A DNA stretch of 64,000 bases from Pseudanabaena sp. SOY_30_concoct_251 (GTDB lineage: Bacteria; Cyanobacteriota; Cyanobacteriia; Pseudanabaenales; Pseudanabaenaceae). The stretch lies in assembly GCA_031388585.1 (NCBI GenBank), contig JANMRU010000141.1, forward strand, positions 3,160-67,159, read 5' to 3'. The notes below the pieces were generated by a model. The model made no database searches. It was given only the letters and a program-made list of their open reading frames with translations, and was not told where the DNA came from. Position 1 is the stretch's first letter. Each line of letters opens with the position of its first letter. Shown one piece after another: positions 5,681 to 49,765 of the stretch. The position numbers were made by a program, and so were the translations under genes.

Positions 5681-5809
5681 CTTATTACTCCTCACAAGAG
5701 TTTATTTAGAACGTCAATCCTTGCGATTGCTGAGACTCATTTTATCACCGAAGAAATACTGATTAACATTAAGTTAAAGTATTTATACTTAATTTGGTGT
5801 TCCGACATG

Positions 5810-6144: not shown

Positions 6145-7806
6145 CTAGAAACTGAACACAGTCCGAAGGGTGCCAACGGTAACAGTTCCATTTGTACTGT
6201 CGTTGTTGGGGTTGAAGATGAACTGTAGATCGGGGGTGATTCTGATGTTGTCAGAAATTGGGAAGTTGTAGAACAATTCCAAATTGGTCTGAGAGCTGTT
6301 ACCTACTTGGCTGGAGATAAATGGCTGACCAACCGCAATCCCAGCTAGAGCACCTGGCTTGAATAGGTCAGGGAAGGCAAATCCAAACATCCAGGTCTGA
6401 GGGCTAATGCTTCTACCTGTTCCAGGGTTGACGAAGTTACCGTAGGCAGTTGAAGCACTCAGGCTAACACCACGGCTGTTGATGGTTCCGAAGCCATAGC
6501 GACCAAAGAGAGCAGCACCCTTAGCAAATGCCCACTCAACGTTTACGCCACCAGATTCAACATCAACATTGCTGATTGCACCCTTGGTGTACTGCAGGCG
6601 GAGCGCAAAAGGCCCTTTCTTATCGCCATCTTTAGGAGAAAACTCAAGCTCAATCGTGCCTTGGTAAGGATCGCCAAACAGTCCTCGGTTAGTAAGCGCA
6701 CCTGTGCCATTATCGCCAGCGGAAGGTACTGAACCTGTCGCAGCAGCATAGACAGCACGAAGGCTAAATGCTCCACTACCAGGATTCCAGTCGAGTGCTG
6801 CACCAGGAACCCCATTGATGGGGTTAATAAGCATTACAAGGGGATTGTTAAGGAAGAATGTGGAGGAGAAATCAACGGCTTCGTTGTTAGCAAAGCTATT
6901 AACATCAACATAATCCCAAACATTAATGGCAGGGCCGATTGCTACCTTTAAGTCTTTAAATGGCTTGAATTCATAGACCAGCTTCTGTAGACCAAAATTG
7001 CTGCTGACACCACCGAAGTCTAGGGCGAATGTATCAAATCCGATATTGCCCAAGTCTCCAGCAGGAAAGGCACCAATCACGTTACCGGCGGTTGCACCAC
7101 CGTTACCAGCTTGAAGGCGGGTGATTAACAAGTCATCGCCAGTAAAGCTAGTATTAAAGTCAAGACGGACTCTGGAATTAAAAGTGGTATTGACGTTGCC
7201 GTTGTTACCACCGCTAGCACCAGTGACAGCAAAGATGGCTTGACCGCTTAGCTTTGTAGTGGTAGAAAACTGCTGAGACTCTAGCTTAGCGGTCTTAGAC
7301 TCTAAAGCATCAACACGTCCTTTTAGAGCTGCTAGTTCTGCGGCAAACTCTTCTTGTAACTTTTGAACGGCAGCGAAGTCTTCTTTACTGACTTTATCTG
7401 CCAGACCAGTTGTAATAATCTCGTTGATTTTGTCCAAGCAAGCATTCAAACCTGCGGCAAACTCGTAGCGAGTCATAGAGCGTTGGCCGCGATAGGTCTT
7501 ATCGGGGTAACCAGCAATACATCCGTAGCGTTCAACTAAGGATTGCAAGGCTGTAAATGCCCAATCAGTAGGTTTGACATCGCTGAGCTGAGATACCGAT
7601 GTAACGTTCTGTGCAACTTCTTGTGCGTTATTATTCAATACTTCAGTCACTTGACTGACTTGAGCTGGCTGAGAAGCTTCTTGGGTATTGGAGCTGGCCG
7701 CTGATGTATCGACTTTGGTTTGTGCTAGTACAGGATTGCCTGCAATTAGGCTAGCTACGGTCAGAATGCTAATGCCGCCTGCTAGTTTGAGATAAGATTC
7801 TTTCAT
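6145..7806 (-). CDS. SLH-domain / OprB-family outer-membrane porin (copy 2)
   Basis: Same architecture as copy 1, with long identical stretches such as NVTSVSQLSDVKPTDWAFTALQSLVERYGCIAGYPD and the C-terminal WMFG.AFPDLFKPGALA..AVGQPFISSQVGNSSQTN. I prefer the ATG at 7806 (MKESYL), which follows GAGGAG. Confidence 0.85.
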   Translation of the reverse strand: MKESYLKLAGGISILTVASLIAGNPVLAQTKVDTSAASSNTQEASQPAQVSQVTEVLNNNAQEVAQNVTSVSQLSDVKPTDWAFTALQSLVERYGCIAGYPDKTYRGQRSMTRYEFAAGLNACLDKINEIITTGLADKVSKEDFAAVQKLQEEFAAELAALKGRVDALESKTAKLESQQFSTTTKLSGQAIFAVTGASGGNNGNVNTTFNSRVRLDFNTSFTGDDLLITRLQAGNGGATAGNVIGAFPAGDLGNIGFDTFALDFGGVSSNFGLQKLVYEFKPFKDLKVAIGPAINVWDYVDVNSFANNEAVDFSSTFFLNNPLVMLINPINGVPGAALDWNPGSGAFSLRAVYAAATGSVPSAGDNGTGALTNRGLFGDPYQGTIELEFSPKDGDKKGPFALRLQYTKGAISNVDVESGGVNVEWAFAKGAALFGRYGFGTINSRGVSLSASTAYGNFVNPGTGRSISPQTWMFGFAFPDLFKPGALAGIAVGQPFISSQVGNSSQTNLELFYNFPISDNIRITPDLQFIFNPNNDSTNGTVTVGTLRTVFSF

Positions 7807-8309
7807 ATTTTTACTCCTCACGAGAGCGTTTTGATATTGCAAATTTTGCTTGAGCTTCTAACAGTTAGACTCTGTGTACGTCACTAACCTTTGGTTTGCG
7901 CGTCTATAGAAATCAGACTATTCTCTATTTCCAGGAAAAGATTCCATGAATCTAGAGCATATCTATAGGGCTTTGCAACTTTTTTGCTCAAGATTTAGTC
8001 AGAGTTACCCTTTTCTTGGATATTAGATAGCCATATATTAGCACTTCAAGCCCTTACAAAACAAAGGTTATGGTAGCTTTTGCTAAGTAATTTAAGGCTC
8101 AGTGTGATGCTTGGCACTTGACTAAGTGAGTAATTTCACCATAGACATCGTGCCTTGGAGTGCCTATCACGTAAGCAGAGTATCGCTCGGCACTTTAGTC
8201 TTCACTATGACAGAGTTGGGCAAATCTAATCCCTTTCTGGGGTTGGACGTGTCAGGGAGTCTTGACTTATATAATTGGTGTAGTAAGCCCTACCTGTTCA
8301 AATTGCTCT

Positions 8310-20108: not shown

Positions 20109-21647
20109 ATGAAACCGAATTACCTGATTGTAGGTAGTGGTCTGTCGGCACTGGTTTTTGCGGCTCTGATGGCAAAATCTGGTAAGAAAGTGCAGATCTT
20201 AGAAGCCCACGAGCATCCAGGCGGCTTTGGTCACACGTTTACGATGGCCCAGAAATATACATTTAATGCTCAACTCCATTATGTGTGGAATTGTGGCGAA
20301 GGGCAGACTGTGAATCAGGTGCTCAAAAAACTGAACCTGGATCGAGAAGTGACTTTTGAGCGTTACGATCCCGATGGTTTTGACCATATGAGAATGCCGG
20401 GCTACTCGCTAGATATTCCTTCGGAATCTGAGGAGCTAGTTCTGAGGCTAGCCAAGCTTTTTCCGCAGCATACCGATCGCATTCGCAAATTTATGGCTGA
20501 AGTCCAAAAAACGGCTGAGGGATTAGAGAACTTATCATTTCCACTTATTCCGACTCAAGTATTTCAGCACTTTGGTGCGGTGCTCTGCGCCCTAACCTAT
20601 CTGAATAGTACGCTTCAGGATGTCTTCGATAAATTTAAACTACCGAAAGAGGCTCAAACGCTGTTGGCGCTGCAATGGCCTGATTTCTTATTACCTCCGA
20701 ATCGACTCTCTTTTTATGCCTGGGTAATTTTGTTTACGGGATATCAAAAAGGAGCGTTTTATCCCACTAAGCACTTCGAGCATGTCATAAATTCCCTAGT
20801 TAAGCTAATTGAGCAGCATGGAGGTAAGGTTCTGCTGAATCATGAAGTCACTAGTTTTACGGTCAAAAATAAAACTGTGACTGGAGTCCAGGCGATCAAT
20901 AAGATCGCCCATCAAACTGAAGAATTCACAGGTGAAACGATTATCTGCAACATGGATCCCAAAAAAGCAGCCAAGCTAATTGGAGTGGAAAACTTCTCCC
21001 CAACAATTCGCCAGAAACTCAACTATGATTACTCGGCGTCAAACTATATGGCCTACTGCGTGGTTAAAGATATCGACCTGCGCGATTATGGATTTGGCAA
21101 GTGGAATACCTTCTATACTGGCGATCGCGATTTAAATCAGGCATTCGATCGCATGTATGAAAAACATGATTTTTCTAATCCCAGTTTTGCGATTACGACA
21201 CCGACTTTACTCACAAAGGAGCAACTCGACTGCCCAGAAGACTGCCAAATTATTGAATTCCTCACCGTTGCTAATTATGACTACTTTAAAAAGCTGCAAG
21301 AAAGCGATCGCAAGGCTTATAGACAGAAAAAAACCGAAATCTTCGATGCCATTCTGGACGTAGTCGAAAAAAACTATATTCCGAATTTCAGAAAACACAT
21401 TGTGTTTAAAATTACTGGCAGTCCCACTACAAATGAGCGGTTTTGCTGGTGTCCGCAGGGGAATTCCTATGGTTCTAATCTCACACCCCGCAATATGGGA
21501 ATTGGCAGGCTGAATTATCAGACATCCTTGAAGAATTTCTATTTTTGCAATGCATCATCAGGTTACCCAGGCTTTGCGCCGACATTTTGGACTGGAGCAG
21601 TTTTATATCAGCGATTGTCAGGAGATTTGATTCTATCGAATAACTAA
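20109..21647 (+). CDS. FAD/NAD(P)-dependent oxidoreductase, phytoene-desaturase/RetSat-like (COG1233-type)
   Basis: Rossmann N-terminus YLIVGSGLSALVFAALMAKSGKKVQILEAHEHPGGFGHTF. The length of 512 aa fits the family. Confidence 0.65.
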   Translation: MKPNYLIVGSGLSALVFAALMAKSGKKVQILEAHEHPGGFGHTFTMAQKYTFNAQLHYVWNCGEGQTVNQVLKKLNLDREVTFERYDPDGFDHMRMPGYSLDIPSESEELVLRLAKLFPQHTDRIRKFMAEVQKTAEGLENLSFPLIPTQVFQHFGAVLCALTYLNSTLQDVFDKFKLPKEAQTLLALQWPDFLLPPNRLSFYAWVILFTGYQKGAFYPTKHFEHVINSLVKLIEQHGGKVLLNHEVTSFTVKNKTVTGVQAINKIAHQTEEFTGETIICNMDPKKAAKLIGVENFSPTIRQKLNYDYSASNYMAYCVVKDIDLRDYGFGKWNTFYTGDRDLNQAFDRMYEKHDFSNPSFAITTPTLLTKEQLDCPEDCQIIEFLTVANYDYFKKLQESDRKAYRQKKTEIFDAILDVVEKNYIPNFRKHIVFKITGSPTTNERFCWCPQGNSYGSNLTPRNMGIGRLNYQTSLKNFYFCNASSGYPGFAPTFWTGAVLYQRLSGDLILSNN

Positions 21648-21700
21648 CCGCAAAGTTACGACTCAATTTTCACGGAATCTCACTAGTTTTGCGATTAAAT

Positions 21701-22915
21701 ATGAAAATAGCGATAATTGGCGGTGGAGCAAGTGGGATGGTCGCAGCCTACTTACTCGATAAACAGGGGCACCATGTCACGGTTTTTGAAAAGCAACCGA
21801 TTCTGGGCGGACATATTCGCACGTTAAATCAAAATGTTAAACCCAATCGCTCTGATTGCGACCTATGTTTAGAAAGCGGCGTGCTTGAATTTCCCATTGT
21901 ATTTCACAACTTCCTGGCCTTGATGAAGGAACTGGAAGTGGAATTAGAACCCGTTAATATTGGATCGGCATTGTTCCTGCAAGATGGTCGCCACTTTCTG
22001 TCGGCGGTGATGATTCAAAAGAACTTCACGGGCATTCAGCGTGCGATCGAATATTTGCGACTTGATGGCATCTACGCCCGTTCCGCAGGACTATGGATCA
22101 CAACGCATTTTGCGCGATCGCTCGATCTACGAGATCGCCCCATGTCTCAATTCGTTCATCGTCAGTTCATCAGGAATTGCTGGCTGAAATTGCTAACCAT
22201 GTACAGCTACTCGATACCATTTGAACTGATCGACAATTTTCCAGCGGCATTGGTAATTCCCACACTCCGTGAGTACATCTTTGTCAACTGGGTGAGAATT
22301 AAAGGCGGAGTTTATTCCTACATTGCCAAAATCTTGGAACGATTCAAGGGCGATCTCCTTCTCAATGTCGATGTTGTGGAGATTTTCAGGTCAACTGATG
22401 CCGTTAAAGTTGGACTCTCAGATGGTGTGACACGTGAGTTTGATAAGATTGTGTTCGCGACACCACCCGATCGAGTAATGGAGTTATTAGCCGATCCGAC
22501 TGACACCGAAATCAAGCGGTTTTCGGCATGGAAGAGTAACTACGCAAAAACTGTTATCCATACCGATACTTCGATGTACGTTAAATACGGCATTAAGCAA
22601 TTTTCGGAATTTGATTTTTTCCAAACTGAGAGTAGTTGGGGCTATAATGCCTATCTCAACCAGCTTTGTGGTATCTCATCGTCTGAGCAATATAGTCTAG
22701 CGTTTAATCTCGATGAGTTACTTGCAAAAGATAAAATCGTGCACGTACAGGAACATCACACTCCTCTGTACACGGTTGAGGCTTTCAGGTATAGAGACGA
22801 AGTGATCGAGACTAATGGTGAGAATCGTACATATCATGCGGGAGCATACCTTGGTGATGGTTTGCATGAAGGAGCGGTCGCCTCCGCCATGCGGGTTGCT
22901 CAGTTGATTGGGTAG
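21701..22915 (+). CDS. FAD-dependent oxidoreductase, amine-oxidase-like (COG2907-type)
   Basis: MKIAIIGGGASGMVAAYLLDKQGHHVTVFEKQPILGGHIRT dinucleotide-binding motif. The C-terminal YHAGAYLGDGLHEGAVASA is typical of this flavoprotein group. Confidence 0.65.
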   Translation: MKIAIIGGGASGMVAAYLLDKQGHHVTVFEKQPILGGHIRTLNQNVKPNRSDCDLCLESGVLEFPIVFHNFLALMKELEVELEPVNIGSALFLQDGRHFLSAVMIQKNFTGIQRAIEYLRLDGIYARSAGLWITTHFARSLDLRDRPMSQFVHRQFIRNCWLKLLTMYSYSIPFELIDNFPAALVIPTLREYIFVNWVRIKGGVYSYIAKILERFKGDLLLNVDVVEIFRSTDAVKVGLSDGVTREFDKIVFATPPDRVMELLADPTDTEIKRFSAWKSNYAKTVIHTDTSMYVKYGIKQFSEFDFFQTESSWGYNAYLNQLCGISSSEQYSLAFNLDELLAKDKIVHVQEHHTPLYTVEAFRYRDEVIETNGENRTYHAGAYLGDGLHEGAVASAMRVAQLIG

Positions 22916-23024: not shown

Positions 23025-23798
23025 TCATGCAGCAGCCAACGCTTCTTGTCCGTGTTGGCGCATCAGATCCATGAGTTCGTCGCGGTAATCGTGGAAGACA
23101 GAGTGGCGTTTAACCAGGTGAGTGCGATTGGGTAGCTTAACGGTAATCACCTTACGCACAGTGCCAGGGCGAGAACCGAGAGCATAGATGCGATTGGAGA
23201 GAAAAATTGCTTCTTCCACGTCGTGGGTGATCGAGAAGACTGTAATCCCCGTACGTTGCCAGAGATCGAGCATAAATTCGTGCATCGCTTCTTTTGTGTG
23301 AATATCTAAAGCACCGAAAGGTTCATCCATCAGCAGAATTTTTGGCTCGGAAGCTAGGGCGCGGGCGATCGCCACCCGTTGCTTCATACCACCGGAAAGT
23401 TCCTTCGGTAATGATTTAGAAAACTGAGATAATCCCACCACATTGAGATAATAGCTAGCTTGTTCGCGGCGTTCCTTTTTAGGGACACCTTGTAGTTTTA
23501 GCCCAAACTCGGTGTTTTGCAGCACTGTCATCCAGGGATAAAGGGTGTAGTTCTGAAACACCATGCCGCGATCGGGTCCTGGTGAAGTGACACGCTTACC
23601 CTCAATTCTGATTTCACCACTAGTTGGCAAGTCAAGCCCAGCAATCTGACGCAGCAAAGTAGACTTACCTGAACCCGATGCCCCCACAACGCAAATAAAC
23701 TCACCTTGCTCGATCGACATATTAATGTCTCTAAGCACAACCAGGGTTCCTTGCTGAGTCTCAAAGTTCTTGTTTAAGCGATTGATTTGTAAAAACAT
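23025..23798 (-). CDS. ABC transporter ATP-binding protein (NitT/TauT family), last gene of the guanidine operon
   Basis: Walker A GASGSGKST, signature LSGGMKQR and Walker B LLMDEPFGALD. I prefer the ATG at 23798 (MFLQINRLNKNF). Confidence 0.85.
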   Translation of the reverse strand: MFLQINRLNKNFETQQGTLVVLRDINMSIEQGEFICVVGASGSGKSTLLRQIAGLDLPTSGEIRIEGKRVTSPGPDRGMVFQNYTLYPWMTVLQNTEFGLKLQGVPKKERREQASYYLNVVGLSQFSKSLPKELSGGMKQRVAIARALASEPKILLMDEPFGALDIHTKEAMHEFMLDLWQRTGITVFSITHDVEEAIFLSNRIYALGSRPGTVRKVITVKLPNRTHLVKRHSVFHDYRDELMDLMRQHGQEALAAA

Positions 23799-23896
23799 GA
23801 TTTTAATACTGGTTATAAATCTTATATATTCTGGATCGATTTCAGGTGACATGCTGTAAATTTGGTCACACTTCTATAGCACTCCCACGCAAGCAA

Positions 23897-24778
23897 TTAG
23901 CGTTTTTGACTAGCCCATCGACAGGATACTTGCAATAAATATTGAAATAGCAAATCGAAGGTTAGACCAATGACTCCAATTACGATTAGACCAACAAAAA
24001 TTTCATCGGTTTTGAGAAATCGACCAGCGACGCTGATCCTTCTCCCTAAACCTTCAGTTGCTGCAATCAGCTCTGAAACGATTACCAATTGCCAGGCAGC
24101 CGCCAGGTTGATACGGCAGGCATCAATAATGCCAGGTAGGGAATGTGGGAAAATCACCTGCAGTAAAGTTTCCCAGCGATTTCCACCGAGCATATAAGTA
24201 GCTTCCAGCAAATCTTTAGACACAAACTTAATCGTGTCCATCACCATCAATGAATTGAAGAAAAAGACCCCAATAAAGATAAGAGCGATTTTGGGTTCCT
24301 CCCCAATCCCCAGATATAGAATTAACAGCGGAATAAAGGCAGGGGCGGGCATATATCGCACCAGACCAAAAAGTGGTTCTAGCAAGGCACGAATACTTGC
24401 AAAGCTACCCATCATCACACCAGTTGGAATGGCAAACATTGCTGCCAGTGAGAATCCAACCCCAACCCGCCACAGACTCGCCACCGTATCTTTAAGCAGT
24501 TCACCAGTGTTCCACAATCGACCGAAGGCATCGCTAACCTGACCAGGCGAAGGTAAAAACTTGGGGTCTATCTGAACGAATGTCGTTACCAACCACCATA
24601 GTCCCAATGGTAAAGCGATTGAAGTAATTGCTAATGCCGCACTCAGGGGTTGAGGAATATCTTCTGCTAGTCGCCAGAAAACGCTTGTACGAAAGGTCTT
24701 AGGTTTAATCAATGACTGAATTGATTTCTGGTCATTAGGCTCTTGCATTTTTCGCCGGGATAATAGCTTAACCGCCAA
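23897..24778 (-). CDS. ABC transporter permease (NitT/TauT family)
   Basis: Six hydrophobic helices and BPD-type permease topology. The start is either the TTG at 24778 or the ATG at 24748. Confidence 0.8.
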   Translation of the reverse strand: MAVKLLSRRKMQEPNDQKSIQSLIKPKTFRTSVFWRLAEDIPQPLSAALAITSIALPLGLWWLVTTFVQIDPKFLPSPGQVSDAFGRLWNTGELLKDTVASLWRVGVGFSLAAMFAIPTGVMMGSFASIRALLEPLFGLVRYMPAPAFIPLLILYLGIGEEPKIALIFIGVFFFNSLMVMDTIKFVSKDLLEATYMLGGNRWETLLQVIFPHSLPGIIDACRINLAAAWQLVIVSELIAATEGLGRRISVAGRFLKTDEIFVGLIVIGVIGLTFDLLFQYLLQVSCRWASQKR

Positions 24779-24783
24779 TTTAA

Positions 24784-25824
24784 CTAGGTTTTCTGAGCTT
24801 TTTCTGCGTATGCTTTGACAAAGCGATCGTCAAATAGCTTACTGAGATTCGGTTTTGTTTTTGCTAAGCCAACCTCGTTGAGGAATTTACTCATCTGTTC
24901 GGCAGCAAATGGTAATGAACCCATATCAGAACCTGGTAGAAAGGCTTTCAAGTTTTCGGCGATCGTGAAAATTTGAGTGCCGTTGGCATAGTCCTTGTAT
25001 TCTTCAACGCTAACACCAGCGCGCTTCGCCATAATCTCATAGGCTGTCTTCTGATTGGCGTTAATGTAGTCTAAGGTGGCAAACCATGAATTGACTGCTA
25101 ATTGCACCAGATCTGGATGTTCATTGACAAACTTGCGCGTAAATACCAGGTGGTCAGAAATTGCACCTGGGAAGTCCTTAGAACTGAAGATTTCTTTACT
25201 CCCTGACAGCTTCAATGCTTGAGTAGTGAAGGGCGCAAATACGGCAACCGCATCAACTTGTCCTGCCACAAAAGCTGCCGCAGCTTTGCCAGTTTCTAGG
25301 GGTACAAACTGAATATCTTTCGCTGATAAGCCAGCTTTTTTTAGACCTTGCAATAAAAGGAAGTGATCGACAGTACCTTCTTCAGCAGCAACCTTCTTCC
25401 CTTTTAAATCGGTGATGGAATTGATGCCACTTCTAGCAATCACTTTGTCATTGCCAGTTGAATTATCATTCACTAGAACGATAACTTGATCCGCACCACC
25501 GGATACAGAACTCACAGTATCTCCCAAGGTTTGGCTATTTGCATCAATTTGCCCAGCGTTGAGTGTACTGATCGATTCTAAGTAACCATCAAACCATTTC
25601 AAATCTACTTGGGTTTTGGTGGCTGTAAATATCCCTTGCTCTTGAGCTACTTGCCAAGGGAACCAGCCTGGCCATGCACTAAATCCTAAACGAATAGTAG
25701 TTTGGGTTGCTGAAGTTGGTGAGCTGTTTGTGGAAATCTGGTTTGCGGGATTTGTACAGCCTACCGCAAGGGTTAAACTAATGCAGAAGAGTAAGAAACA
25801 AGAAAGAAGTGATTTGATTTTCAT
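24784..25824 (-). CDS. ABC transporter substrate-binding lipoprotein (NMT1/TauA-like); predicted guanidine-binding component
   Basis: Lipobox LTLAVGC and a periplasmic-binding-protein pattern. The ligand assignment is inferred from operon and riboswitch context. Confidence 0.75.
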   Translation of the reverse strand: MKIKSLLSCFLLFCISLTLAVGCTNPANQISTNSSPTSATQTTIRLGFSAWPGWFPWQVAQEQGIFTATKTQVDLKWFDGYLESISTLNAGQIDANSQTLGDTVSSVSGGADQVIVLVNDNSTGNDKVIARSGINSITDLKGKKVAAEEGTVDHFLLLQGLKKAGLSAKDIQFVPLETGKAAAAFVAGQVDAVAVFAPFTTQALKLSGSKEIFSSKDFPGAISDHLVFTRKFVNEHPDLVQLAVNSWFATLDYINANQKTAYEIMAKRAGVSVEEYKDYANGTQIFTIAENLKAFLPGSDMGSLPFAAEQMSKFLNEVGLAKTKPNLSKLFDDRFVKAYAEKAQKT

Positions 25825-25833
25825 AATACATCC

Positions 25834-26532
25834 TTACAAGTGACTAACCGCTAAGTTTTGCTTTGCGGCAATTTGCGATCGCAACCACCCAAACCAGGCT
25901 TCTAAGCCCTCACTGGTTTTAGCCGAAATGGGAAAGATCGCGCAATGGGGATTCATTTGGCGGACATTGGCAATAATCTGACTGATATCAATATCTAGAT
26001 GCGGGGCAAGATCCATCTTCGTAATCAACAGACAATCTGCGGCTTGGAACATCACAGGATATTTCAGCGGTTTATCTTCTCCTTCAGTGATGCTCAAAAG
26101 TGCGACCTTAGCATGTTCGCCCACTTCAAACTCGGCGGGACAAACCAGATTGCCAACATTCTCAACTAAAACGAGATCGAATTCAGTTGGAGTGTATTCG
26201 TGCTCTAATCGATGAATCCCACCCGCAACCATTTTGGCGTCGAGATGACAGGAGCGTCCTGTATTAATTGCTATGACTGGGACATCGTAGCAACGTAGGC
26301 GCTCAGCATCCAGCTCTGTGGTCATGTCACCTTCTATTACGGCAATTCTAAACTCTCGATTCAGTGCTGCTAGGGTGCGCTCTAACAGCACGGTCTTGCC
26401 CGCACCGGGGCTACTCATAATATTTAGGCAGGTGATACCCCATTTGTCAAAGTGGGCGCGATTATGGTCTGCTCCTTGCTGATTGGCGTGAAGCAAGTTA
26501 ATGCCGAGGGCAGCGTCAAAGGTTTGATGCAT
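25834..26532 (-). CDS. hypB: HypB-family metal-binding GTPase; by context a GhaB-like accessory protein for Ni loading of guanidine hydrolase
   Basis: P-loop [21 protein letters not shown] and a TKMD NKxD-like motif. No hydrogenase genes are nearby, and it sits directly downstream of the arginase-fold gene. Confidence 0.8.
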
Positions 26533-26543
26533 AGGATCTCCAG

Positions 26544-26933
26544 TTAGCGGGAAAGGGTGGTGGCGATGGTTTGCTCAGAACGGGTGCAGGTATATTCGAT
26601 GCGATCGATTTTCAGCTCTCGTCCTGAGCGGATATCTTCCATAGGAGAGCGACAATCGGGACAGGCATATTGAATACCAATTTCTGGTTGATACTCCTGT
26701 TGGCAGCCGTGGCAAAAGGCAATGAGGGGAGACTCACAAATCACGAGAGCTGCCTTTTCTAGAAAGGTATTTAGAGTCTGAACTTCAAATGTGAACTGCA
26801 AACTCATGGGTTCCACACATGTGAACTTCCCGACTGTGAGATGAACGTGAGAGATCTCAACAGGTTCTGGCTGACTCTCCCACCAGTCTTTTACAGTCAA
26901 GATCAAAGCTTTCGTCATATCTATTTCGTGCAT
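26544..26933 (-). CDS. hypA: HypA-family zinc-ribbon Ni metallochaperone; by context GhaA-like
   Basis: MHE N-terminus and CHGC...CPDC zinc site. The ATG at 26933 lies 10 nt after the upstream stop; the track's longer ORF overlaps the upstream gene. Confidence 0.8.
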
Positions 26934-26943
26934 GGTGTTATCC

Positions 26944-28140
26944 TCATGCCCACGGTATATCGACAGACATATTGGCTTCAGGATGGATGTAAGTGGCTTT
27001 TTGTTTGCGTGGTAATTGGCCAGAGAGCACCAAATGCGCCATCGCGTCACAAATTACTCGCGTTGCTAATAGTGAAGTCATATCGCTGACATCGTAGGGA
27101 GGAGACACTTCAACTATCTCTAGTCCACAAACGGGGGCGCGTTGCACAATTTTGCCAAGCAGTGCGAGAGCTTCACGAGGTAGTAAACCTCCTGGTTCTG
27201 GCCAGCCTGTACCTGGGACAAATCCAGCATCGATACAATCAATATCAAAACTAATATAGACGCAATCAGTGCCATCTAAAGCGCGTTCTAGGGCAAACTC
27301 CACCGAGGCATCAATGCCCATTTCCATGATGTCGGTAACGGTGAGAATGTTTGTGGCACGCTCTCGGCAAACCTTAACTCCTTGACGGGGAACCTGCCAA
27401 CCGCCAATCCCTAACTGCACTAGATTTTTGGCTGGCGCATTCTTCATGTTGGTAGCATGGAACCAAGGACAGGTGTGCATCCTTTCATCTAGATCGGTCT
27501 CTTGGGTATCGACGTGGCGATCGAAGTGGATAATTCCGACCTTTTTGTCTCCTAGATGGCGACATACTCCTCGAACCGTGGGAAATCCGATAGAGTGATC
27601 GCCGCCAAGAATGATCGGGAACGCACCAGAACTGAAAACGTGAGCAACTCCTTTGGATATTTGATCGAAGGATTTCTCGTTGTTGGCAGGAATGGTAAAT
27701 ATATCGCCAACATCGCAGAGGGTAATTTGTTCGCGCAAGTCAACGCCTAACTCAAAGTTGTAGGGTGTATAGAGGGCGGAAATGCGACGGATGCCTTGAG
27801 GGCCAAAACGAGTGCCTGGGCGGTAGGTGGTGCCAGAGTCGTGAGGTACGCCAACGATCGCCACATCGTATTCCCCTACTTTACGCACATCTTCTAGATA
27901 AGGGGCTTTCATAAACGTGTTGATCCCGGCGTAGTGGGGGAGTTCGCCGCGAGAAAAGGTGGGAATAGAGCGATCGCGAATACTCTCTGCTGCTTCCAAT
28001 CCATATTCTAGACCTTTGGAAACTTCTTGTTGCCAGCCTGATAGAGGCAGTTGTGCTTCACGCTCTAAAGCACGGTTTGCTTCAGTAGAGTATCCACTTA
28101 TGTTAGAGTCCGGACTTTGAAAAAGGGAATCTTCAGTCAT
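26944..28140 (-). CDS. gdmH: Arginase/agmatinase-family ureohydrolase; predicted Ni-dependent guanidine hydrolase (GdmH-type)
   Basis: Ureohydrolase motifs GVPHD, HFDRHVDT, GGDHS and SFDIDCIDAGFVPGTGWPEPGG, with an N-terminal extension relative to classical agmatinases. A guanidine-I riboswitch lies in the leader and HypA/HypB-like genes lie downstream. Confidence 0.8.
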   Translation of the reverse strand: MTEDSLFQSPDSNISGYSTEANRALEREAQLPLSGWQQEVSKGLEYGLEAAESIRDRSIPTFSRGELPHYAGINTFMKAPYLEDVRKVGEYDVAIVGVPHDSGTTYRPGTRFGPQGIRRISALYTPYNFELGVDLREQITLCDVGDIFTIPANNEKSFDQISKGVAHVFSSGAFPIILGGDHSIGFPTVRGVCRHLGDKKVGIIHFDRHVDTQETDLDERMHTCPWFHATNMKNAPAKNLVQLGIGGWQVPRQGVKVCRERATNILTVTDIMEMGIDASVEFALERALDGTDCVYISFDIDCIDAGFVPGTGWPEPGGLLPREALALLGKIVQRAPVCGLEIVEVSPPYDVSDMTSLLATRVICDAMAHLVLSGQLPRKQKATYIHPEANMSVDIPWA

Positions 28141-28182
28141 GCTTTAGGTCTCCGTGAATAGATATGGATCTAAATAAAATGC

Positions 28183-28240
28183 AAAAAACCGGGCGAGTAG
28201 CAAAGATAGATAAAACTATCGTTGCCAACTTCTCCCGGGC
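28183..28240 (-). terminator. Riboswitch expression platform: terminator hairpin overlapping the 3' aptamer strand
   Basis: On the minus strand, CCGGGAGAAGUUGGCAA...UUUGCUACUCGCCCGG is followed by UUUUUU. The 5' arm reuses the CCCGGGAGA that closes the aptamer, so ligand binding should prevent termination. Confidence 0.65.
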
Positions 28241-28372
28241 TTTTATCCCGCCGTGTTACCATTCTGAATCACTTCAACTTTTGAAAGAAAAAATGCCAGG
28301 TGGTTTACTTCTCTCGGACCAGCCGCTCAATCCAGGAGCATTGCCCATGTCTCAAACCGGAACCCTAGAAGC
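28229..28372 (-). promoter_or_regulatory. Guanidine-I riboswitch (ykkC class) aptamer
   Basis: The minus strand reads CUAGGGUUCCGG...CUGGUCCGAGAG...ACACGGCGGGAUAAAAGCCCGGGAGA. All three highly conserved ykkC blocks are present in the right order. Confidence 0.9.
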
Positions 28373-28656
28373 TATTTAAATTTTTTGAGTGTGAAAAGGT
28401 TTAATTAAGATAGGGTCGCCTAAAAACAATAAATCATGATTAGACGCGCTTAGATCGGAAACTTTAGCGACTTATGCCATTTTAAGGATTGTCTATCTAA
28501 ATTCACCTACTAGCTATACGGATTATTAGTAGCAATATCAGCAGCGCATAATTGTATCAAAGAATACAGAATCAGTCTCCTTATCAAAAGGCTCTGCTGT
28601 CCAAATCGCATGGCTATCAAGCTTTGCGGCAATATACCGCCATCTGCAACCTCAAT

Positions 28657-32000: not shown

Positions 32001-33725
32001 TTAATCTAAGGACAAGAATATCTGACCGCGCCTGACGTTTGGACTATCCTTGGGATTTGATGCCACACTTGCTAGGTTAATTGCTCTGATGTGTTTAAAG
32101 AGCGGCATGTCGTCGTCGGCAACTGCGTTCCGCACTAGTTTGAACAAAGCTGTATCGGGTAATAATGCGGCTAAATCTATTTGCTGGTCAGTATAGGCAT
32201 AGCTCTGGTAATTGTGGGGTAATGTAGCTGCGATCGCCTTGGATTTCTCTGAGTTAGTTATACTTTTTCGATCGCTGGCTAGAGCCTTCGTTGCCTCAAT
32301 TGCTTCTATGGCCTCGACAGAGTTGGCGATCGAGACTAGATCGGGAGTCTGACTGCGCACCGCTGCTACCGTACCAGTTATTGATGCCTTGTCAGATTTG
32401 ACGCTAACGGCACTGAGGCGCGTCCAAACTGTTAGTTCGCGACCGTTTACTTCAATATTACCGACGGTGAGCTTACCTTTACTGCGAGCGCGATCGTCAA
32501 GTTGAGCGATCGCGGCTTTAGAAGTTTCAGCATTTGTTTTTTGGGCGACAAATACCCAGTCAGGAGCCTTATCTGCAACCGGTAATAAGCCGATCGCATA
32601 GTCACCATTGACCCAGTTAAAAACATCCTGTTCTAGGTTTAACCCCAAGTTGGAAGCTAAGTTGGCGATCGCTTGATTGCAAAATGTTGCCAATTCAGGA
32701 TAAGGCTGCAAAACGGAGCTGATTTGCTGCCAGGTTTGCTTTAAGTCGCGTCCCACAATTAACGAACTATTCTGAGGGAGAATTTGGAAGGCTTTATTGT
32801 CAGTAAAAATAGATGAGTTAGATGGATTTGCGGCGCTTACAGGTAGTTTAGCGAGTGATTCCAGAGTTAATAATGTTTCCGCTTTTATCCCTGCACGATC
32901 TAACCCTAACCCAAGGGTAATACCAGCCTCAGGTAGGTTCGCAAAACTAGTAGGTAAAGCCTTATTGACTGTTCCCCATCTACCTAACTCAGACAAATTG
33001 GCAAATGCTACGCCAATATGAGCTTCTGATAATTGGTTGAGGCTATTTTGATAGTTGCTGACGCTTGCGAGCGCTAAATCTGGTACCTGAATGTCGTTAA
33101 TGGCATTGCGAATTACTTTAGGATCGTTAGCTAGCAACACAAACTTGCCCAGAATTGTCGCGGTCAGCCCAGGGTACTTTGATGTGGATGTGGCATAAAT
33201 AAAAGGCACGCCCTGATACTGCTCAAAGGCCAGATCCATGCCTGCGACTGCCTGTCTCTGCCAGAATGAGTCCACGGATTTCTTGGCTATAACAGGTTTA
33301 TCGATCGCTAGAGCTAGCAGATATCCAGGTTGTAGTCCATTTGCAGACTGACGGTCTAAATCGGGTGTGGTGACGGCCAAAGTGACTTCATTGCCCACCC
33401 AAGGTTTGACATCTTGGTCATAGTCCAATGCCCATACTTGTTTGACTGCCTGCTTGAGATCTCGAATTTCGTTACGAAGGGCAGCGCGATCGCCAGGTCT
33501 AGCTGATAGTTGTGCGGACAAGCTCAATTTATCGGGATTAACCAGGAATGATGCGACTAATGGTGATCGCTTCGGCAAAAATGTGGCGGCAGCAGGCTGT
33601 ACCGTGACACCCTGCAATAGGTTGCCAGGCGAGGCACTCAAAACCCTCGATACTGCTGTGATACTAAGAAACAGTAATACAACTGCCGCAGCCGCAATAA
33701 CAATAACAACTGATTTGGCCTTCAT
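32001..33725 (-). CDS. DUF3352-like protein (N-terminal membrane anchor, large periplasmic part)
   Basis: 574 aa with an N-terminal TM helix. The block YDQDVKPWVGNEVTLAV parallels FERDIQPWLGSMTFAV in the paralog at 38958..40616. Family assignment is from memory only. Confidence 0.5.
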   Translation of the reverse strand: MKAKSVVIVIAAAAVVLLFLSITAVSRVLSASPGNLLQGVTVQPAAATFLPKRSPLVASFLVNPDKLSLSAQLSARPGDRAALRNEIRDLKQAVKQVWALDYDQDVKPWVGNEVTLAVTTPDLDRQSANGLQPGYLLALAIDKPVIAKKSVDSFWQRQAVAGMDLAFEQYQGVPFIYATSTSKYPGLTATILGKFVLLANDPKVIRNAINDIQVPDLALASVSNYQNSLNQLSEAHIGVAFANLSELGRWGTVNKALPTSFANLPEAGITLGLGLDRAGIKAETLLTLESLAKLPVSAANPSNSSIFTDNKAFQILPQNSSLIVGRDLKQTWQQISSVLQPYPELATFCNQAIANLASNLGLNLEQDVFNWVNGDYAIGLLPVADKAPDWVFVAQKTNAETSKAAIAQLDDRARSKGKLTVGNIEVNGRELTVWTRLSAVSVKSDKASITGTVAAVRSQTPDLVSIANSVEAIEAIEATKALASDRKSITNSEKSKAIAATLPHNYQSYAYTDQQIDLAALLPDTALFKLVRNAVADDDMPLFKHIRAINLASVASNPKDSPNVRRGQIFLSLD

Positions 33726-38957: not shown

Positions 38958-40616
38958 ATGGTTATACGGAAATTTGGTCTACTAGCTCTAATCTGCGGGA
39001 CGGTCATGGTTGCAGGAAGTCCAGTAGATTCTCTATTTGCACAGGGAAATAATATTCGTTCGGCTGAACCAGTTGTAAGTGCAGCCAGGTTTGTGCCGCC
39101 GCAGGCGTTGATGACAGTTTCGTTTTACCCCGATCGCAAAACATGGTCTCAGCTAGATCGATTTCACACCCCAACTACTAAAAAGCTATTTAATCAAGCG
39201 ATCGCAAGTTTCCAAAGCACAATTCCTCCCAAGTACAATTTTGAACGAGATATCCAACCCTGGTTAGGGAGCATGACGTTTGCAGTTTTACCCAGACCCT
39301 CTTTGAGATCTCAGAATAAAGAAAGTAGTGAATCCAAGTTCTTGTTCTCAATCGAAGTCACAGATCTAGATAGGGCCAACAAATTGATGGAAGCAGTGAA
39401 AATCCATGATGGTTCTAAGGTGACACTACGAGAGGATTATAAAGGGGTTAAAATCATCCAGATTGATTACGACAACGGGAAACAATTCATCTATACATTT
39501 GTTGACAAACATTTAGTATTTGCTGAGCAGGAAGTGGTTTTAAAGCACGCGATAGATACATATAAAAGTAAGGTGTCACTTGCTAGCGTTATTGCTAACG
39601 ATAATCTAGATCTCAAAAATCCAGTTTGCTGGCTTTATATGCATAGTTTGGCAAAATTTGTCAAGCAATATGGAACGGAAGATACCGAAATCCCTGCGGA
39701 ATCTCTCGCTGTCCTGAATTCGATTGAGTCAATAAATTTAGGAGTGGGCATAGACATTGATGGCATCAGACTCAAAGCCTCTACGAAGCTAAAGTCAAAT
39801 TCACCCTACCTAAATGTTTTTAAACCTTTCACAGATAAGATAATTTCACAATTCCCATCTGAAACAATTGGATTGCTCTCTGGCAGTAATATCAAAGCTC
39901 ATTGGCAGCAATTTGTGGGAAGTGTGGAAAGGTTGTCTGAAGTAAAAAACAGCCTGAATGAGTTTAGACAAACGCTTAAATCATCCCCTCTTGCACTCGA
40001 TCTCGATAAAGATATCTTTGGATGGATGGGAGGTGAATTTGCCTTTGCAGGAATTCCCACTCACGGAGAGGGAGAAAGTATATTAGCAATCATAGGCTTC
40101 ACGCCTGTTTTGGTTTTGCAAACTAGCGATCGCCGCGCTACTGAATCTCTACTGAATAAATTAAACACCTTTTTTAAAAATAATTCTGGCTTAGTCGAGA
40201 CTAAAACCATCGGTAGCACTCCTGTAACGCAGTGGATATTCCCAACTGCACCAGAGGCGCTCCTGAGTTATGGTTGGCATAGAAAAGATACGTTATTTAT
40301 AACTGTTGGCGGATCTTTGACAAAAGTACTAGCCTCGAACTCAAAGGAAACTTTGCAGGGCAGTTCAGCATTTAGGGCGATCGCTGGATCGCTCCCTCAA
40401 CCAAATCTCGGCTACTTTTATCTAGATATTGACAAAACCTGGAAGTTGGTTACTGAGAAATATCCAGATTCTGCAAATATTGGCGCCGAAGTCACTGCCA
40501 TACTTAGCAGAGTTCGCGGCATCGGTGTGACCGTCACTGCTCCCGATCGCAATACAACAAAAGTGAAAATGCTACTCTCTCTCAAGCAGCGAGGTTTTGG
40601 GGGTATTTGGTATTAA
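38958..40616 (+). CDS. DUF3352-like protein, paralog of 32001..33725
   Basis: 552 aa with an N-terminal signal or anchor. It shares blocks with the other copy, for example the DIQPWLGSMTFAVLP region. Confidence 0.5.
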   Translation: MVIRKFGLLALICGTVMVAGSPVDSLFAQGNNIRSAEPVVSAARFVPPQALMTVSFYPDRKTWSQLDRFHTPTTKKLFNQAIASFQSTIPPKYNFERDIQPWLGSMTFAVLPRPSLRSQNKESSESKFLFSIEVTDLDRANKLMEAVKIHDGSKVTLREDYKGVKIIQIDYDNGKQFIYTFVDKHLVFAEQEVVLKHAIDTYKSKVSLASVIANDNLDLKNPVCWLYMHSLAKFVKQYGTEDTEIPAESLAVLNSIESINLGVGIDIDGIRLKASTKLKSNSPYLNVFKPFTDKIISQFPSETIGLLSGSNIKAHWQQFVGSVERLSEVKNSLNEFRQTLKSSPLALDLDKDIFGWMGGEFAFAGIPTHGEGESILAIIGFTPVLVLQTSDRRATESLLNKLNTFFKNNSGLVETKTIGSTPVTQWIFPTAPEALLSYGWHRKDTLFITVGGSLTKVLASNSKETLQGSSAFRAIAGSLPQPNLGYFYLDIDKTWKLVTEKYPDSANIGAEVTAILSRVRGIGVTVTAPDRNTTKVKMLLSLKQRGFGGIWY

Positions 40617-45442: not shown

Positions 45443-46627
45443 CTATATCAATCTTCGTTTCACCTGCATACCGATTGCTAGCCCCACCACAATAATAACT
45501 GTGAGGTAGAAAAGCGTAATAAACCTTACGGTTAGAGACGGCGCTACGCCCTCCACTTCAATTTCTTGAGTAACTTGAAAGGGCTGAAATTGCCGAACTC
45601 CTCCTGGCTTTGGCGAGACTTCAACTTCTAACTTGTGCGGTGCTCCATCTAAAAATGTCGCCAGCCATTGCAAATCCCCTGTAGCATTTGGCGATGCTTG
45701 GAAGTCCAGTGCGACCCATTCACCATCAACTGCCGTAGTTTTGACATGCAGAAGTGCATCCGTAACTGGCTGATTAGTCTTGGTGTCGATTACTTGAACC
45801 TTGAAGTTAGCAGGTTGCCCTACGATCGCTTGCTGATCGCCAGCTAGCCTTACTTCTAATCCTTGCGATCGCTTTATACCTGCCTCACTAGTGGCAATAT
45901 TCTGGGCATCAGGATTAGCTTGGTGAGCGACTGAGCCTTGGTCTGTCCCATGTGATTCTGCCATTTCGGCGTTGATATTAACGAATAGTAGAGCGCCAAT
46001 TGCTAGCACCGTCATACCACTTAGCAATAACCTGACTCGCTGAGGTGCGATTTCGCCTGTGGCGACTTGTTGCTTACCACCAATAATCCAGCCTCCACCT
46101 AGTCCCATTACAAGCAAAACGATTGCTAGAATTGCAAAATAGAGATACTTCACACCACTTTCGGGTACATCCAGACTTAAAGTTTGTTGAAATGGTGCAA
46201 ATGCTTGGGCCACTGTAGGGGTGGCGTTTACCTGCAATTGATAGGTGCCGCGAATGGGAAGCATCTGTTGCACTTGCAACTCGCCGTTGGGAGCGATCGC
46301 CTCCACATCTAATAACTTTGTGCCTTCCACATTTGGGAAATCAGTTGTAAACCAGGGTGTTGGAGCTGGGGCAAGAATCTGGAGGTGGATCTTGGCATTG
46401 GTAAGGGGACGACCAGCAGAGTCTAGCGCTTGCAAAGTCAGGCGCGTCGGCGTTGGAGTCACAGCAGCCTCGGCTTCAAAGGGTAAAATTTGGCTGACTG
46501 GCGGTTCGGTGAGCAATCTCACCGTAGACTGTGGCTGGGAAACGATCGCAGAGCGACTGAAAATTAAAGCGACCGCACATGTTAATGCCAAAAAAGCAAT
46601 CGGCTTGATCGATCTGAACTTAAACAT
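45443..46627 (-). CDS. Uncharacterised membrane protein with two tandem (beta-rich periplasmic domain + TM) modules; B12-riboswitch regulated
   Basis: Signal or anchor, domain 1, two TM helices, domain 2, and a C-terminal TM helix. The halves align: LTLQALDSAGRPLTNAKIHLQ with FKVQVIDTKTNQPVTDALLHV, and FAPFQQTLSLDV with FQPFQVTQEIEV. It lies 50 nt downstream of the cbtB-like gene. Confidence 0.6.
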   Translation of the reverse strand: MFKFRSIKPIAFLALTCAVALIFSRSAIVSQPQSTVRLLTEPPVSQILPFEAEAAVTPTPTRLTLQALDSAGRPLTNAKIHLQILAPAPTPWFTTDFPNVEGTKLLDVEAIAPNGELQVQQMLPIRGTYQLQVNATPTVAQAFAPFQQTLSLDVPESGVKYLYFAILAIVLLVMGLGGGWIIGGKQQVATGEIAPQRVRLLLSGMTVLAIGALLFVNINAEMAESHGTDQGSVAHQANPDAQNIATSEAGIKRSQGLEVRLAGDQQAIVGQPANFKVQVIDTKTNQPVTDALLHVKTTAVDGEWVALDFQASPNATGDLQWLATFLDGAPHKLEVEVSPKPGGVRQFQPFQVTQEIEVEGVAPSLTVRFITLFYLTVIIVVGLAIGMQVKRRLI

Positions 46628-46872: not shown

Positions 46873-46904
46873 GTACCTCGCAGATGCACTTAAATTACTC
46901 ACTT

Positions 46905-47075
46905 ACTTGGGCGGGCATTCTGACTTTTCAGCAACCAAATTACATAGTGAGGAGTTAGTTAAGAAGCCCTATCACTGCATAACTGGTAACTGAGTCTACA
47001 GTTGCGGGACAGCGTCGGATTTACACCGCTCTTTCCCCGTTACCTCTAGTAGCTGATCCCTACTAGAACCGATAA
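46905..47075 (-). promoter_or_regulatory. Cobalamin (B12) riboswitch
   Basis: The minus strand reads CGGUUC-hairpin(CUAGUAG..CUACUAG)-AGGUAACGGGGAAAGAGCGGUGUAAAUCCGACGCUGUCCCGCAACUGUAG ... AAGUCAGAAUGCCCGCC. That is the conserved core plus a B12-box-like 3' element, about 35 nt upstream of the cbtB ATG. Confidence 0.85.
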
Positions 47076-47131
47076 GCTTGCACATCATATCATGGGGGGC
47101 TGCCCAGGTTTTTAAAGCTTTGTTTACATCG

Positions 47132-49246: not shown

Positions 49247-49765
49247 ATGTCAGATAAGCAAACCTATATTCGTGAGAGCAGAGCTATATATGATAGCGCT
49301 TGCTCAGCATATGAAAGACAGTATTTTGATTGGCAGTCAGGTGGATTTGTGCTGACACATAATGGACATAATCGCGATGATGCTTTTTCATCCGAACTAT
49401 TTGTAGCAAAGGTGTTTGCACAAAGCGGCAGTAGAGTTAAGCTGCTAGAGGAGTCTGATGCCGTTCCTGGTAAGCGTCCTGATGCTGATATTAACGGCGA
49501 AATTTGGGACTTTAAAGAAATCGCGAATGCCGAGAATATTGCAGGTGCAACTCAACAGCAGATTCGGCGGGGTAAAAAGCAGGCTGATAAAGTGACTTTA
49601 TATGTTACTCAGGAATACGATATTGCCGATGTTAACCTAGGTATTGCAAGTGCAATCAGGATTGATATAGCCAACCTAATCCAGAAGATCGCTTTCATAG
49701 ATCGCGCTGGAAGGTTGCAAATTCTAAACAGAGAGGAACTTATGAATGGAAAACGCTTTCAATAA
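49247..49765 (+). CDS. Putative PD-(D/E)xK-fold nuclease (toxin-like)
   Basis: Ordered motif set SSELFVAK (E), RVKLLEE, KRPDADI (PD), EIWDFKE (D-x-K) and QQQIRRGKK. The region is AT-richer and lacks HIP1. Confidence 0.45.
   Translation: MSDKQTYIRESRAIYDSACSAYERQYFDWQSGGFVLTHNGHNRDDAFSSELFVAKVFAQSGSRVKLLEESDAVPGKRPDADINGEIWDFKEIANAENIAGATQQQIRRGKKQADKVTLYVTQEYDIADVNLGIASAIRIDIANLIQKIAFIDRAGRLQILNREELMNGKRFQ

Follow-up and report, generated by a model that had tools for sequence, protein, structure and literature searches.

The stretch of DNA analysed here (the window, 64,000 nucleotides from a Pseudanabaena contig) carries on its minus strand, from 28140 to 23025, six co-directional genes preceded by a guanidine-I aptamer. 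With a probability of about 0.93, genes and aptamer together make up the cyanobacterial module for guanidine assimilation (gdmH-ghaA-ghaB-gimABC and its guanidine-I riboswitch), which is orthologous to sll1077-sll1082 of Synechocystis PCC 6803; the functions at the locus are all transferred by orthology. The initial annotation had reached the same interpretation, and it is supported. That annotation also held the pathway to be a hidden one, but the complete arrangement, with its importer and riboswitch, has already been published. Experiments in Synechocystis have characterised each of the components (Wang 2021; Funck 2022, as cited in later papers; Itzenhauser 2025), so the locus represents a known system and not a new one.

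The module would work as follows. On nitrogen limitation NtcA would activate a promoter situated some 150 nt ahead of the aptamer, a step proposed here from sequence and shown in Synechocystis. Without guanidine the nascent leader would fold into a terminator (28238-28183) and transcription would halt before gdmH; with guanidine bound, aptamer helix P3 would keep the segment CCGGGAG, the terminator would be blocked and read-through would ensue, as the overlap of the two sequences implies. GimABC would bring in guanidine at low external concentration, GhaA and GhaB would insert Ni into GdmH, and GdmH would convert guanidine to urea and ammonium.

Gene organisation

All six open reading frames were confirmed on the minus strand, and the intergenic spacers are, in order, 10, 11, 9, 5-35 and 44-98 nt, in keeping with the gaps of about 100 nt or less first reported for them. 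The features are, from the promoter downstream:

28554..28567, minus strand: candidate NtcA site GTATTCTTTGATAC, a perfect GTA-N8-TAC
28526..28531, minus strand: candidate -10 element TACTAA, with TTGC just before it, 22 nt downstream of the NtcA box
28230..28379, minus strand: guanidine-I (ykkC, RF00442) aptamer, 66.8 bits against a gathering score of 63, E = 1.1e-9
28183..28238, minus strand: expression platform, a terminator hairpin (28238-28189) followed by U6 (28188-28183)
28153-28150, minus strand: Shine-Dalgarno sequence GGAG of gdmH
26944..28140, minus strand: gdmH, 398 aa, arginase fold, Ni-dependent guanidine hydrolase by orthology
26544..26933, minus strand: ghaA, 129 aa, HypA-like nickel metallochaperone (PF01155, 97 bits; TIGR00100, 111 bits)
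25834..26532, minus strand: ghaB, 232 aa, HypB-like GTPase (TIGR00073, 309 bits)
24784..25824, minus strand: gimA, 346 aa, NitT/TauT (NMT1/SsuA-like) fold, predicted periplasmic guanidine-binding protein
23897..24778, minus strand: gimB, ABC permease (PF00528), likely start 24748 giving 283 aa, gene order conserved
23025..23852, minus strand: gimC, ABC ATPase (PF00005), likely start 23798 giving 257 aa, gene order conserved

The same six-gene order occurs in 49 of 80 other cyanobacterial loci, a count taken among loci that reach far enough to show six genes, and ghaA and ghaB adjoin gdmH in most of the 80. Two amine-oxidase-like flavoproteins, an FtsH and an aminotransferase were considered as further members of the module and rejected, as they lack synteny to gdmH in other genomes.

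The enzyme

On its sequence the first gene is that of a GdmH-type guanidine hydrolase. Its product matches Sll1077 (PDB 7ESR/7OI1), the enzyme with which it was originally equated, at 784 bits and 86% identity (327 of 379 residues). The guanidinase of Nitrospira inopinata (9FEK) follows at 595 bits and, that one apart, any other ureohydrolase reaches 176 bits or less. The exact protein occurs elsewhere in Logan metagenome contigs only. The motifs picked out at the start as marks of an arginase-fold enzyme are located at residue 179 (GGDHS) and residue 205 (HFDRHVDT), and SFDIDCID...GTGWPEPGG spans 297-318. The binuclear ligand pattern of His, Asp-x-His-x-Asp and Asp-x-Asp is present, and the metal ligands H182, D207, H209, D211, D299 and D301 are, like the active-site W313, invariant in 82 sequences. 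This tryptophan would correspond to W305 of Sll1077 (PMC11410670), on the assumption that a tag of 2 residues offsets the PDB chain. The Pfam Arginase domain begins only at residue 92, so that some 90 aa lie ahead of it as the N-terminal extension that had been described; residues 19-91 can be aligned to Sll1077, and the N-terminal loop of GdmH has been described in PMC10927577. Alignment to Sll1077 had been put forward as the check on the assignment, and both the extension and the active-site Trp are found in it.

Sll1077 degrades guanidine and leaves agmatine undegraded (PMC8390497). GdmH requires both Ni and the GhaA/GhaB pair (Funck 2022, as cited in PMC11399263 and PMC10927577), the metal it needs being Ni rather than Mn (Funck 2022, as cited in PMC11399263).

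The nickel chaperones

The true start of ghaA is M40 of the listed 168-aa open reading frame, and the resulting 129 aa are also called on identical public contigs. Its translation has an N-terminal MHE motif and a CxxC...CxxC zinc site; that of ghaB has a GAGKT P-loop, a CH motif and a GNLVCP motif, and in a 162-bit match to the HypB structure 2WSM the CH and GNLxCP motifs align. The HypA-like zinc-ribbon protein and HypB-like GTPase announced as following the enzyme are thus borne out by the family matches listed above (PF01155 and TIGR00100 for the one, TIGR00073 for the other). No member of the hydrogenase, Hyp C-F or urease families was detected at E <= 1e-6 among 40 further open reading frames of at least 130 aa in the 64-kb window, those left out of the scan being few, and short or nested on the opposite strand. 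This agrees with the earlier statement that the window is devoid of hydrogenase genes, and GhaA and GhaB appear to stand outside any hydrogenase or urease maturation cluster within it.

The guanidine-I leader

The leader, initially recognised as guanidine-I (ykkC), matches the full RF00442 model (positions 1-107 of 107) above its gathering score, as the covariance scan proposed for it reveals. The region first delimited ended at 28372, so that the first 7 nt of the aptamer are missing from it. The score is only 3.8 bits over the gathering score, owing to the unusual length of two loops: insertions bring the P1b loop to 20 nt (4 in the model) and P2 to 39 nt (12 in the model). All P1b pairs are nevertheless standard or G-U in the RF00442 alignment, loop lengths vary widely among related aptamers, and all 45 core positions that are invariant in 43 cyanobacterial aptamers are present.

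The P1/P1a/P1b/P2/P3 fold is supported by covariation among those 43 aptamers. In their alignment pairing holds in 92.7% of cells, and 11 of 26 pairs covary with both sides changed; none of 500 shuffles attained the covariation score, and shifting the 3' partners by one column brings pairing down to 54%. An aptamer precedes gdmH in 42 of the 80 other loci by a strict pattern, and a covariance model built from the pattern matches adds 25, for a total of about 67, so that the strict pattern alone undercounts.

Folding gives the terminator hairpin a free energy of -22.9 kcal/mol. A simple terminator scan missed it because the hairpin has internal mismatches. The segment CCGGGAG (nt 28238-28232) serves both as the 5' arm of this hairpin and as the 3' strand of aptamer P3, and this sharing implies that the leader would be a guanidine ON switch. 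The Synechocystis element binds guanidine with a Kd of ~58 uM and gives roughly 4-5-fold induction (PMC12704784).

Promoter and extent of the transcript

The candidate NtcA site is the only perfect one between 20737 and 36806, and, with the candidate -10 element following it, transcription would start near 28519. Of 43 distinct related loci (the pattern search set), 29 have a perfect site in the 450 nt that precede the aptamer, and in most such loci TTGxTA occurs 19-24 nt past it, in the same register. A simple sigma-70 scan of the leader found no promoter, which says little because NtcA-type promoters have no -35 box. The distance from NtcA box to aptamer core is 199 nt here versus 56-130 nt in most relatives, which makes the assignment of the promoter less secure. 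Measured from the predicted promoter, the pre-aptamer leader exceeds that of most relatives by some 140 nt and might carry a further regulatory element. The NtcA box would put the operon under nitrogen-limitation control, as has been shown for gdmH in Synechocystis (PMC12704784).

The spacer between ghaB and gimA is 9 nt, versus a median of 115 nt elsewhere, and is the shortest among about 50 loci. This junction, together with the 5-98 nt packing of the genes, suggests that the importer is on the same riboswitch-gated transcript as the enzyme and chaperones; the idea draws also on the lack of an NtcA-like site before gimA, where neither a perfect nor a loose match was found within 300 nt. A perfect NtcA box before gimA is present in just 5 of 58 loci checked. 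In Synechocystis, in contrast, gimABC is expressed from its own NtcA-dependent promoter (TU794). It may be, though the proposal is a tentative one with the odds rather against it, that the importer here has lost a separate NtcA promoter and become fused into a six-gene transcript behind the riboswitch. If so, guanidine uptake would itself be guanidine-gated, a positive feedback loop absent from Synechocystis.

The importer

GimA has a signal peptide with Cys23, and the lengths of 283 aa for GimB and 257 aa for GimC are those called on identical public contigs. Residues W51, W54, D126 and D224 of GimA are invariant in 57 gdmH-linked orthologues, with position 196 (F196 here) being F or W. By spacing and conservation, as distinct from direct alignment, these five residues fit W59, W62, D135, F205 and D233 of Sll1080 (PMC12704784), with a one-residue offset. 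Orthology and the conserved binding residues point to GimABC being a guanidine importer. The initial annotation had deduced this role for the ABC system; it has since been shown for Synechocystis GimABC (PMC12704784), and the cage residues are present here. Synechocystis GimA has a Kd for guanidine of ~97 nM, and growth of gimA and gimB mutants fails at low guanidine (PMC12704784).

Alternative readings

Taken by homology alone, the six genes would be an agmatinase (SpeB, polyamine synthesis), HypA and HypB for hydrogenase maturation and an ABC transporter for aliphatic sulfonate, taurine or nitrate, brought together by chance. The HypA and HypB equivalog models of NCBIfam (TIGR00100, TIGR00073) do score above cut-off, as does the SsuA (aliphatic sulfonate) subfamily model for the binding protein, whose public names, among the matches listed, are generic or 'aliphatic sulfonate'. 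The top NCBIfam models for the enzyme are likewise agmatinase ones, yet both fall below cut-off (NF002564, 205.4 versus 302; TIGR01230, 173.8 versus 174.3, a shortfall of 0.5 bit), and a SpeB identity was rejected. This reading is very improbable: the 86% identity is to an enzyme that spares agmatine (PMC8390497), PDB entries for true agmatinases reach just 120-136 bits, the leader is a guanidine-specific aptamer, the gene order recurs in 49 other cyanobacterial loci, the 40 other open reading frames scanned in the window included no detected hydrogenase gene, and GimA has an aromatic and acidic cage in place of a sulfonate-binding site (PMC12704784). The forecast that homology-only annotation would misname the genes is correct, as NCBIfam and the public names mislabel most of the six; given the HypA/HypB equivalogs, the SsuA model and the near-cut-off TIGR01230 score, automated pipelines will go on mislabelling the module.

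The same parts might instead serve mainly to detoxify internal guanidine, with the ABC system acting on a related compound or in re-uptake. Guanidine is toxic above ~5 mM and Synechocystis tolerance needs GdmH activity (PMC12704784), guanidine-producing strains are rescued by Sll1077 (PMC8390497), and exporters stand under many guanidine-I riboswitches elsewhere. The linkage of an importer of predicted nanomolar affinity to the operon and the conservation of an NtcA-type promoter across loci point, however, to assimilation under nitrogen limitation, and Synechocystis uses guanidine as sole nitrogen source via the system (PMC12704784); detoxification as the main role is accordingly unlikely, if less so than the chance cluster. 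Detoxification and assimilation are compatible roles. Least credible of all is that the aptamer is a decayed, non-functional relic, with control at the promoter only. The narrow 3.8-bit excess and the long P1b and P2 insertions would suit such decay, but the whole invariant core is intact, every P1b pair is standard or G-U, loop length is highly variable in relatives, and a strong terminator overlaps P3 exactly as an ON-switch design has it.

Comparison with known systems

The guanidine assimilation module of the window has the same gene content and order as sll1077-sll1082 (gdmH-ghaA-ghaB-gimA-gimB-gimC) of Synechocystis PCC 6803 (Wang 2021, PMC8390497; Itzenhauser 2025, PMC12704784), on which Funck 2022 (Nature 603:515, used here by way of papers that cite it) is a further source. 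The likeness extends to the 86% identity of GdmH with the same ligands, active-site Trp and N- and C-terminal extensions, to an RF00442 aptamer in the gdmH leader with an NtcA-type box upstream, and to a NitT/TauT binding protein with the W/W/D/F/D guanidinium cage of GimA (Sll1080). The 9 nt spacer and missing NtcA-like site before gimA set the window apart, as do its longer P1b and P2 insertions and its promoter, which is ~140 nt farther from the aptamer than in most relatives. With enzyme, chaperones, importer, riboswitch and NtcA control all described for the Synechocystis orthologues in 2021-2025, no new biology is involved. The practical value is in the annotation of a widespread nitrogen-scavenging module and, for users of guanidine riboswitches as inducible tools, in a compact natural variant of switch plus importer.

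Nitrospira inopinata (9FEK; Palatinszky 2024, PMC11410670) likewise pairs a GdmH-type Ni guanidinase with a guanidine-I riboswitch, but comammox loci have an APC-family permease and neither Ni chaperones nor an ABC transporter, where the window has GhaA/GhaB and GimABC. Guanidine carboxylase operons (Nelson 2017; Schneider 2020) share the riboswitch class, take nitrogen from free guanidine and often have a related NitT/TauT-type ABC transporter; they proceed, however, by carboxylating guanidine at the expense of ATP, after which carboxyguanidine deiminase and allophanate hydrolase act, and genes for these steps are absent here. The metformin hydrolase operons MfmAB/MefH (PMC10927577, PMC11399263) also encode Ni ureohydrolases whose arginase fold is extended at the N-terminus and which depend on HypA/HypB-like chaperones encoded alongside them. 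They differ in that the enzyme is a metformin-specific heteromer of two paralogues and the operons lack a guanidine riboswitch, and the metformin hydrolases match the GdmH of the window at only 138-151 bits.

A predicted operon for guanidine uptake and hydrolysis

The initial annotation read 23025-28372 as an operon for riboswitch-gated uptake and hydrolysis of guanidine. The analysis confirms the observation and supports its interpretation. Six co-directional minus-strand frames, from 28140 to 23025, are present in the ORF list, and the range given holds for the operon but not at its upper end: since the aptamer extends to 28379, 7 nt of it are clipped.

28230-28379 (−), guanidine-I aptamer
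26944-28140 (−), gdmH, arginase-fold guanidine hydrolase
26544-26933 (−), ghaA, HypA-like protein
25834-26532 (−), ghaB, HypB-like GTPase
24784-25824 (−), gimA, followed by gimB and gimC (−), ABC importer

A GGAG Shine Dalgarno sequence lies 9 nt ahead of the gdmH ATG. The HypA-like ORF is listed as 168 aa and overlaps the end of gdmH; its Pfam and NCBIfam matches start at residue 40 (MHEIDM...), and in the gene calls of identical public contigs the gene is 129 aa. Taking the starts from these calls gives spacers of 10, 11, 9, 35 and 98 nt, the last two becoming 5 and 44 nt if the longest ORFs are taken, so that gaps of about 100 nt or less had been correctly described (5-98 nt measured).

The enzyme and its accessory proteins

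The 398-aa GdmH carries the motifs quoted for it (GGDHS at 179, HFDRHVDT at 205 and SFDIDCID...GTGWPEPGG at 297-318) and, as the Pfam Arginase domain begins only at residue 92, the long N-terminal extension also ascribed to it. The proposed match to Synechocystis Sll1077 is borne out by 327 identical residues of 379 (86%). Against the PDB entries for Sll1077 (7ESR/7OI1, deposited as ‘probable agmatinase 2’) the score is 784 bits and against the Nitrospira inopinata guanidinase (9FEK) 595 bits, the next-best ureohydrolases reaching at most 176 bits and true agmatinases 120-136 bits. Sll1077 converts guanidine to urea and ammonium and does not degrade agmatine (PMC8390497); according to Funck et al. 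(2022, Nature 603:515), as relayed in PMC11399263 and PMC10927577, it requires Ni, and two HypA/HypB-like proteins, GhaA and GhaB, activate it.

When the window protein is aligned with 80 cyanobacterial orthologues and Sll1077, all six metal ligands (H182, D207, H209, D211, D299, D301) are invariant among the 82 sequences, and so is W313. The active-site tryptophan is Trp305 in Sll1077 and Trp313 in the Nitrospira enzyme (PMC11410670); W313 is its counterpart here if, as assumed for the mapping to Trp305, a tag shifts the numbering of the PDB chains by two residues. Only at Y295, where Sll1077 has W, do the two proteins differ in their tryptophans, and this position varies freely among the orthologues (54 Y, 28 W).

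For the two accessory proteins, the features expected of a HypA-like protein (an MHE N-terminus and two CxxC pairs) and of a HypB-like GTPase (a GAGKT P-loop, a CH motif and a GNLVCP motif) were found. Forty other ORFs (130 aa or longer) from the rest of the window were scanned against Pfam, and none matched a hydrogenase, Hyp C-F or urease family at E <= 1e-6, which agrees with the reported lack of hydrogenase genes in the window.

That annotation by homology alone would mislead is evident from the family models. The NCBIfam HypA and HypB equivalogs pass (111 bits against a cut-off of 88, and 309 against 121), GimA passes the SsuA subfamily model (232 against 163), and the best models for GdmH are agmatinase models, TIGR01230 falling 0.5 bit under its cut-off. 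Relatives of GimA go under public names such as ‘NitT/TauT family’, ‘aliphatic sulfonate...’ or ‘ABC transporter substrate-binding protein’.

The predicted importer

GimA has the NMT1/SsuA (NitT/TauT) fold. In Synechocystis, Sll1080-1082 is the guanidine importer GimABC; the Kd of its GimA for guanidine is 97 nM, the guanidinium being caged by W59, W62, F205, D135 and D233, and importer mutants do not grow at 0.1 mM guanidine (PMC12704784). The counterparts in the window protein, mapped by spacing, which is that of Sll1080 bar one residue, are W51, W54, F196, D126 and D224. With the cage kept and the orthologue characterised, the assignment of the ABC system as a guanidine importer is supported. 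The gdmH-linked GimA orthologues form two clades, about 65-80% and about 48-58% identical to the window protein, the latter including Microcystis, Snowella and Acaryochloris. Across 57 of them, drawn from both clades (at about 75% and about 50% identity), the two tryptophans and two aspartates are invariant and the phenylalanine position is always aromatic; nearby positions change (D153 to G, H154 to D, H225 to L).

Riboswitch and candidate promoter

An Rfam scan of the entire window gave a full-length guanidine-I (RF00442) match of 66.8 bits (gathering score 63, E = 1.1e-9), the only copy in the window. Aligned with 42 aptamers from upstream of gdmH in other cyanobacteria, it has all 45 of the 45 invariant columns. 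Standard pairs fill 92.7% of cells in P1/P1a/P1b/P2/P3, falling to about 54% after the 3′ partners are slid by one column; both sides change in 11 of the 26 pairs, and none of 500 shuffles reached the observed covariation score, though these figures are biased in favour of the structure, since the alignment contains the window sequence and had partly served to derive that structure. The Rfam score is independent and free of that bias. On the opposite strand a 66-aa hypothetical ORF is called across the aptamer on identical contigs (28179-28379 (+); 1450-1650 of L081, one such contig); it is probably a spurious call.

Immediately 3′ of the aptamer is a hairpin, 28238-28189 (−22.9 kcal/mol), with U6 behind it. 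The 5′ arm of the hairpin, CCGGGAG, comprises the conserved tail and the 3′ strand of P3, and as this segment is common to both, P3 and the terminator are mutually exclusive. Such competition is the classical guanidine-I ON design, and the overlap suggests that guanidine would switch expression on. For the Synechocystis RF00442 element, the Kd for guanidine is about 58 uM and a reporter is induced 4-5-fold (PMC12704784).

Upstream of the aptamer, at 28567-28554 (−), is a perfect NtcA consensus, GTATTCTTTGATAC, for which the chance expectation in a 450-nt stretch is about 5%. A perfect site is similarly placed in 29 of 43 distinct related loci found by pattern search, and in most of these TTGxTA follows 19-24 nt past the box in the same register, where the window has TTGCTACTAA. 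The candidate box would fit the control known from Synechocystis, where NtcA governs both transcription units (PMC12704784). From box to aptamer core the window has 199 nt compared with 56-130 nt in most relatives; long spacing is also found in three other cyanobacterial loci (L017, L019, L047). The predicted NtcA-type promoter is thereby separated from the aptamer by about 140 nt of additional leader, 28380-28519 (−).

Distribution and regulatory variation

Among 586 relatives (one genome per species) the best 80 loci were retained; all are from cyanobacteria or cyanobacterium-like metagenome bins, with GdmH 87-91% identical, and the six-gene order of the window recurs in 49 of these best 80. 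Of the 37 loci missed by a strict aptamer pattern, 25 have the aptamer ahead of gdmH according to a covariance model made for this analysis, giving about 67 of the 80. A wide occurrence of gdmH among cyanobacteria, often alongside these ABC genes, has been reported (PMC12704784). In other genomes the module is not linked to its neighbours in the window; it is a self-contained unit. Since every element is characterised in Synechocystis PCC 6803, the window locus is an orthologue of the published system, and its guanidine system is already known.

The arrangement differs at the importer. Synechocystis transcribes gimABC from a separate promoter, whereas in the window no NtcA-like site is present within 300 nt upstream of gimA, and the ghaB-gimA junction is 9 nt (the other 49 complete loci have a median of 115 and a minimum of 21 nt). 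The importer is, judging from the sequence, probably co-transcribed behind the riboswitch, a predicted regulatory variation of modest extent. In an Acaryochloridaceae bin (L056) gimABC is upstream of gdmH, with a separate guanidine-I aptamer for each block (1081-1204 and 5046-5186), so there importer and hydrolase are gated separately.

Other features of the window

Convergent with gimC are two adjacent flavin amine-oxidase/CrtI-like oxidoreductases, 20109-21647 (+) and 21689-22915 (+), both far under every NCBIfam cut-off; in other genomes the pair is not syntenic with gdmH loci. A cobalamin riboswitch (RF00174, 38.4 bits, gathering score 31.5) at 46893-47088 (−) directly precedes a 394-aa ORF, 45443-46627 (−), with no Pfam match at E <= 1e-6 and no NCBIfam match at E <= 1e-3, which is an uncharacterised, predicted B12-regulated gene. 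Two DUF3352 paralogues, 32001-33725 (−; 574 aa) and 38958-40616 (+; 552 aa), are less than 7 kb apart, and OprB-type porins with SLH domains form a tandem pair at 3941-5695 (−) and 6145-7842 (−). A lone 172-aa ORF, 49247-49765 (+), comes just past a QueG-like gene and carries a CdiA C-terminal toxin domain (PF18451, 50 bits); no large CdiA body is nearby.
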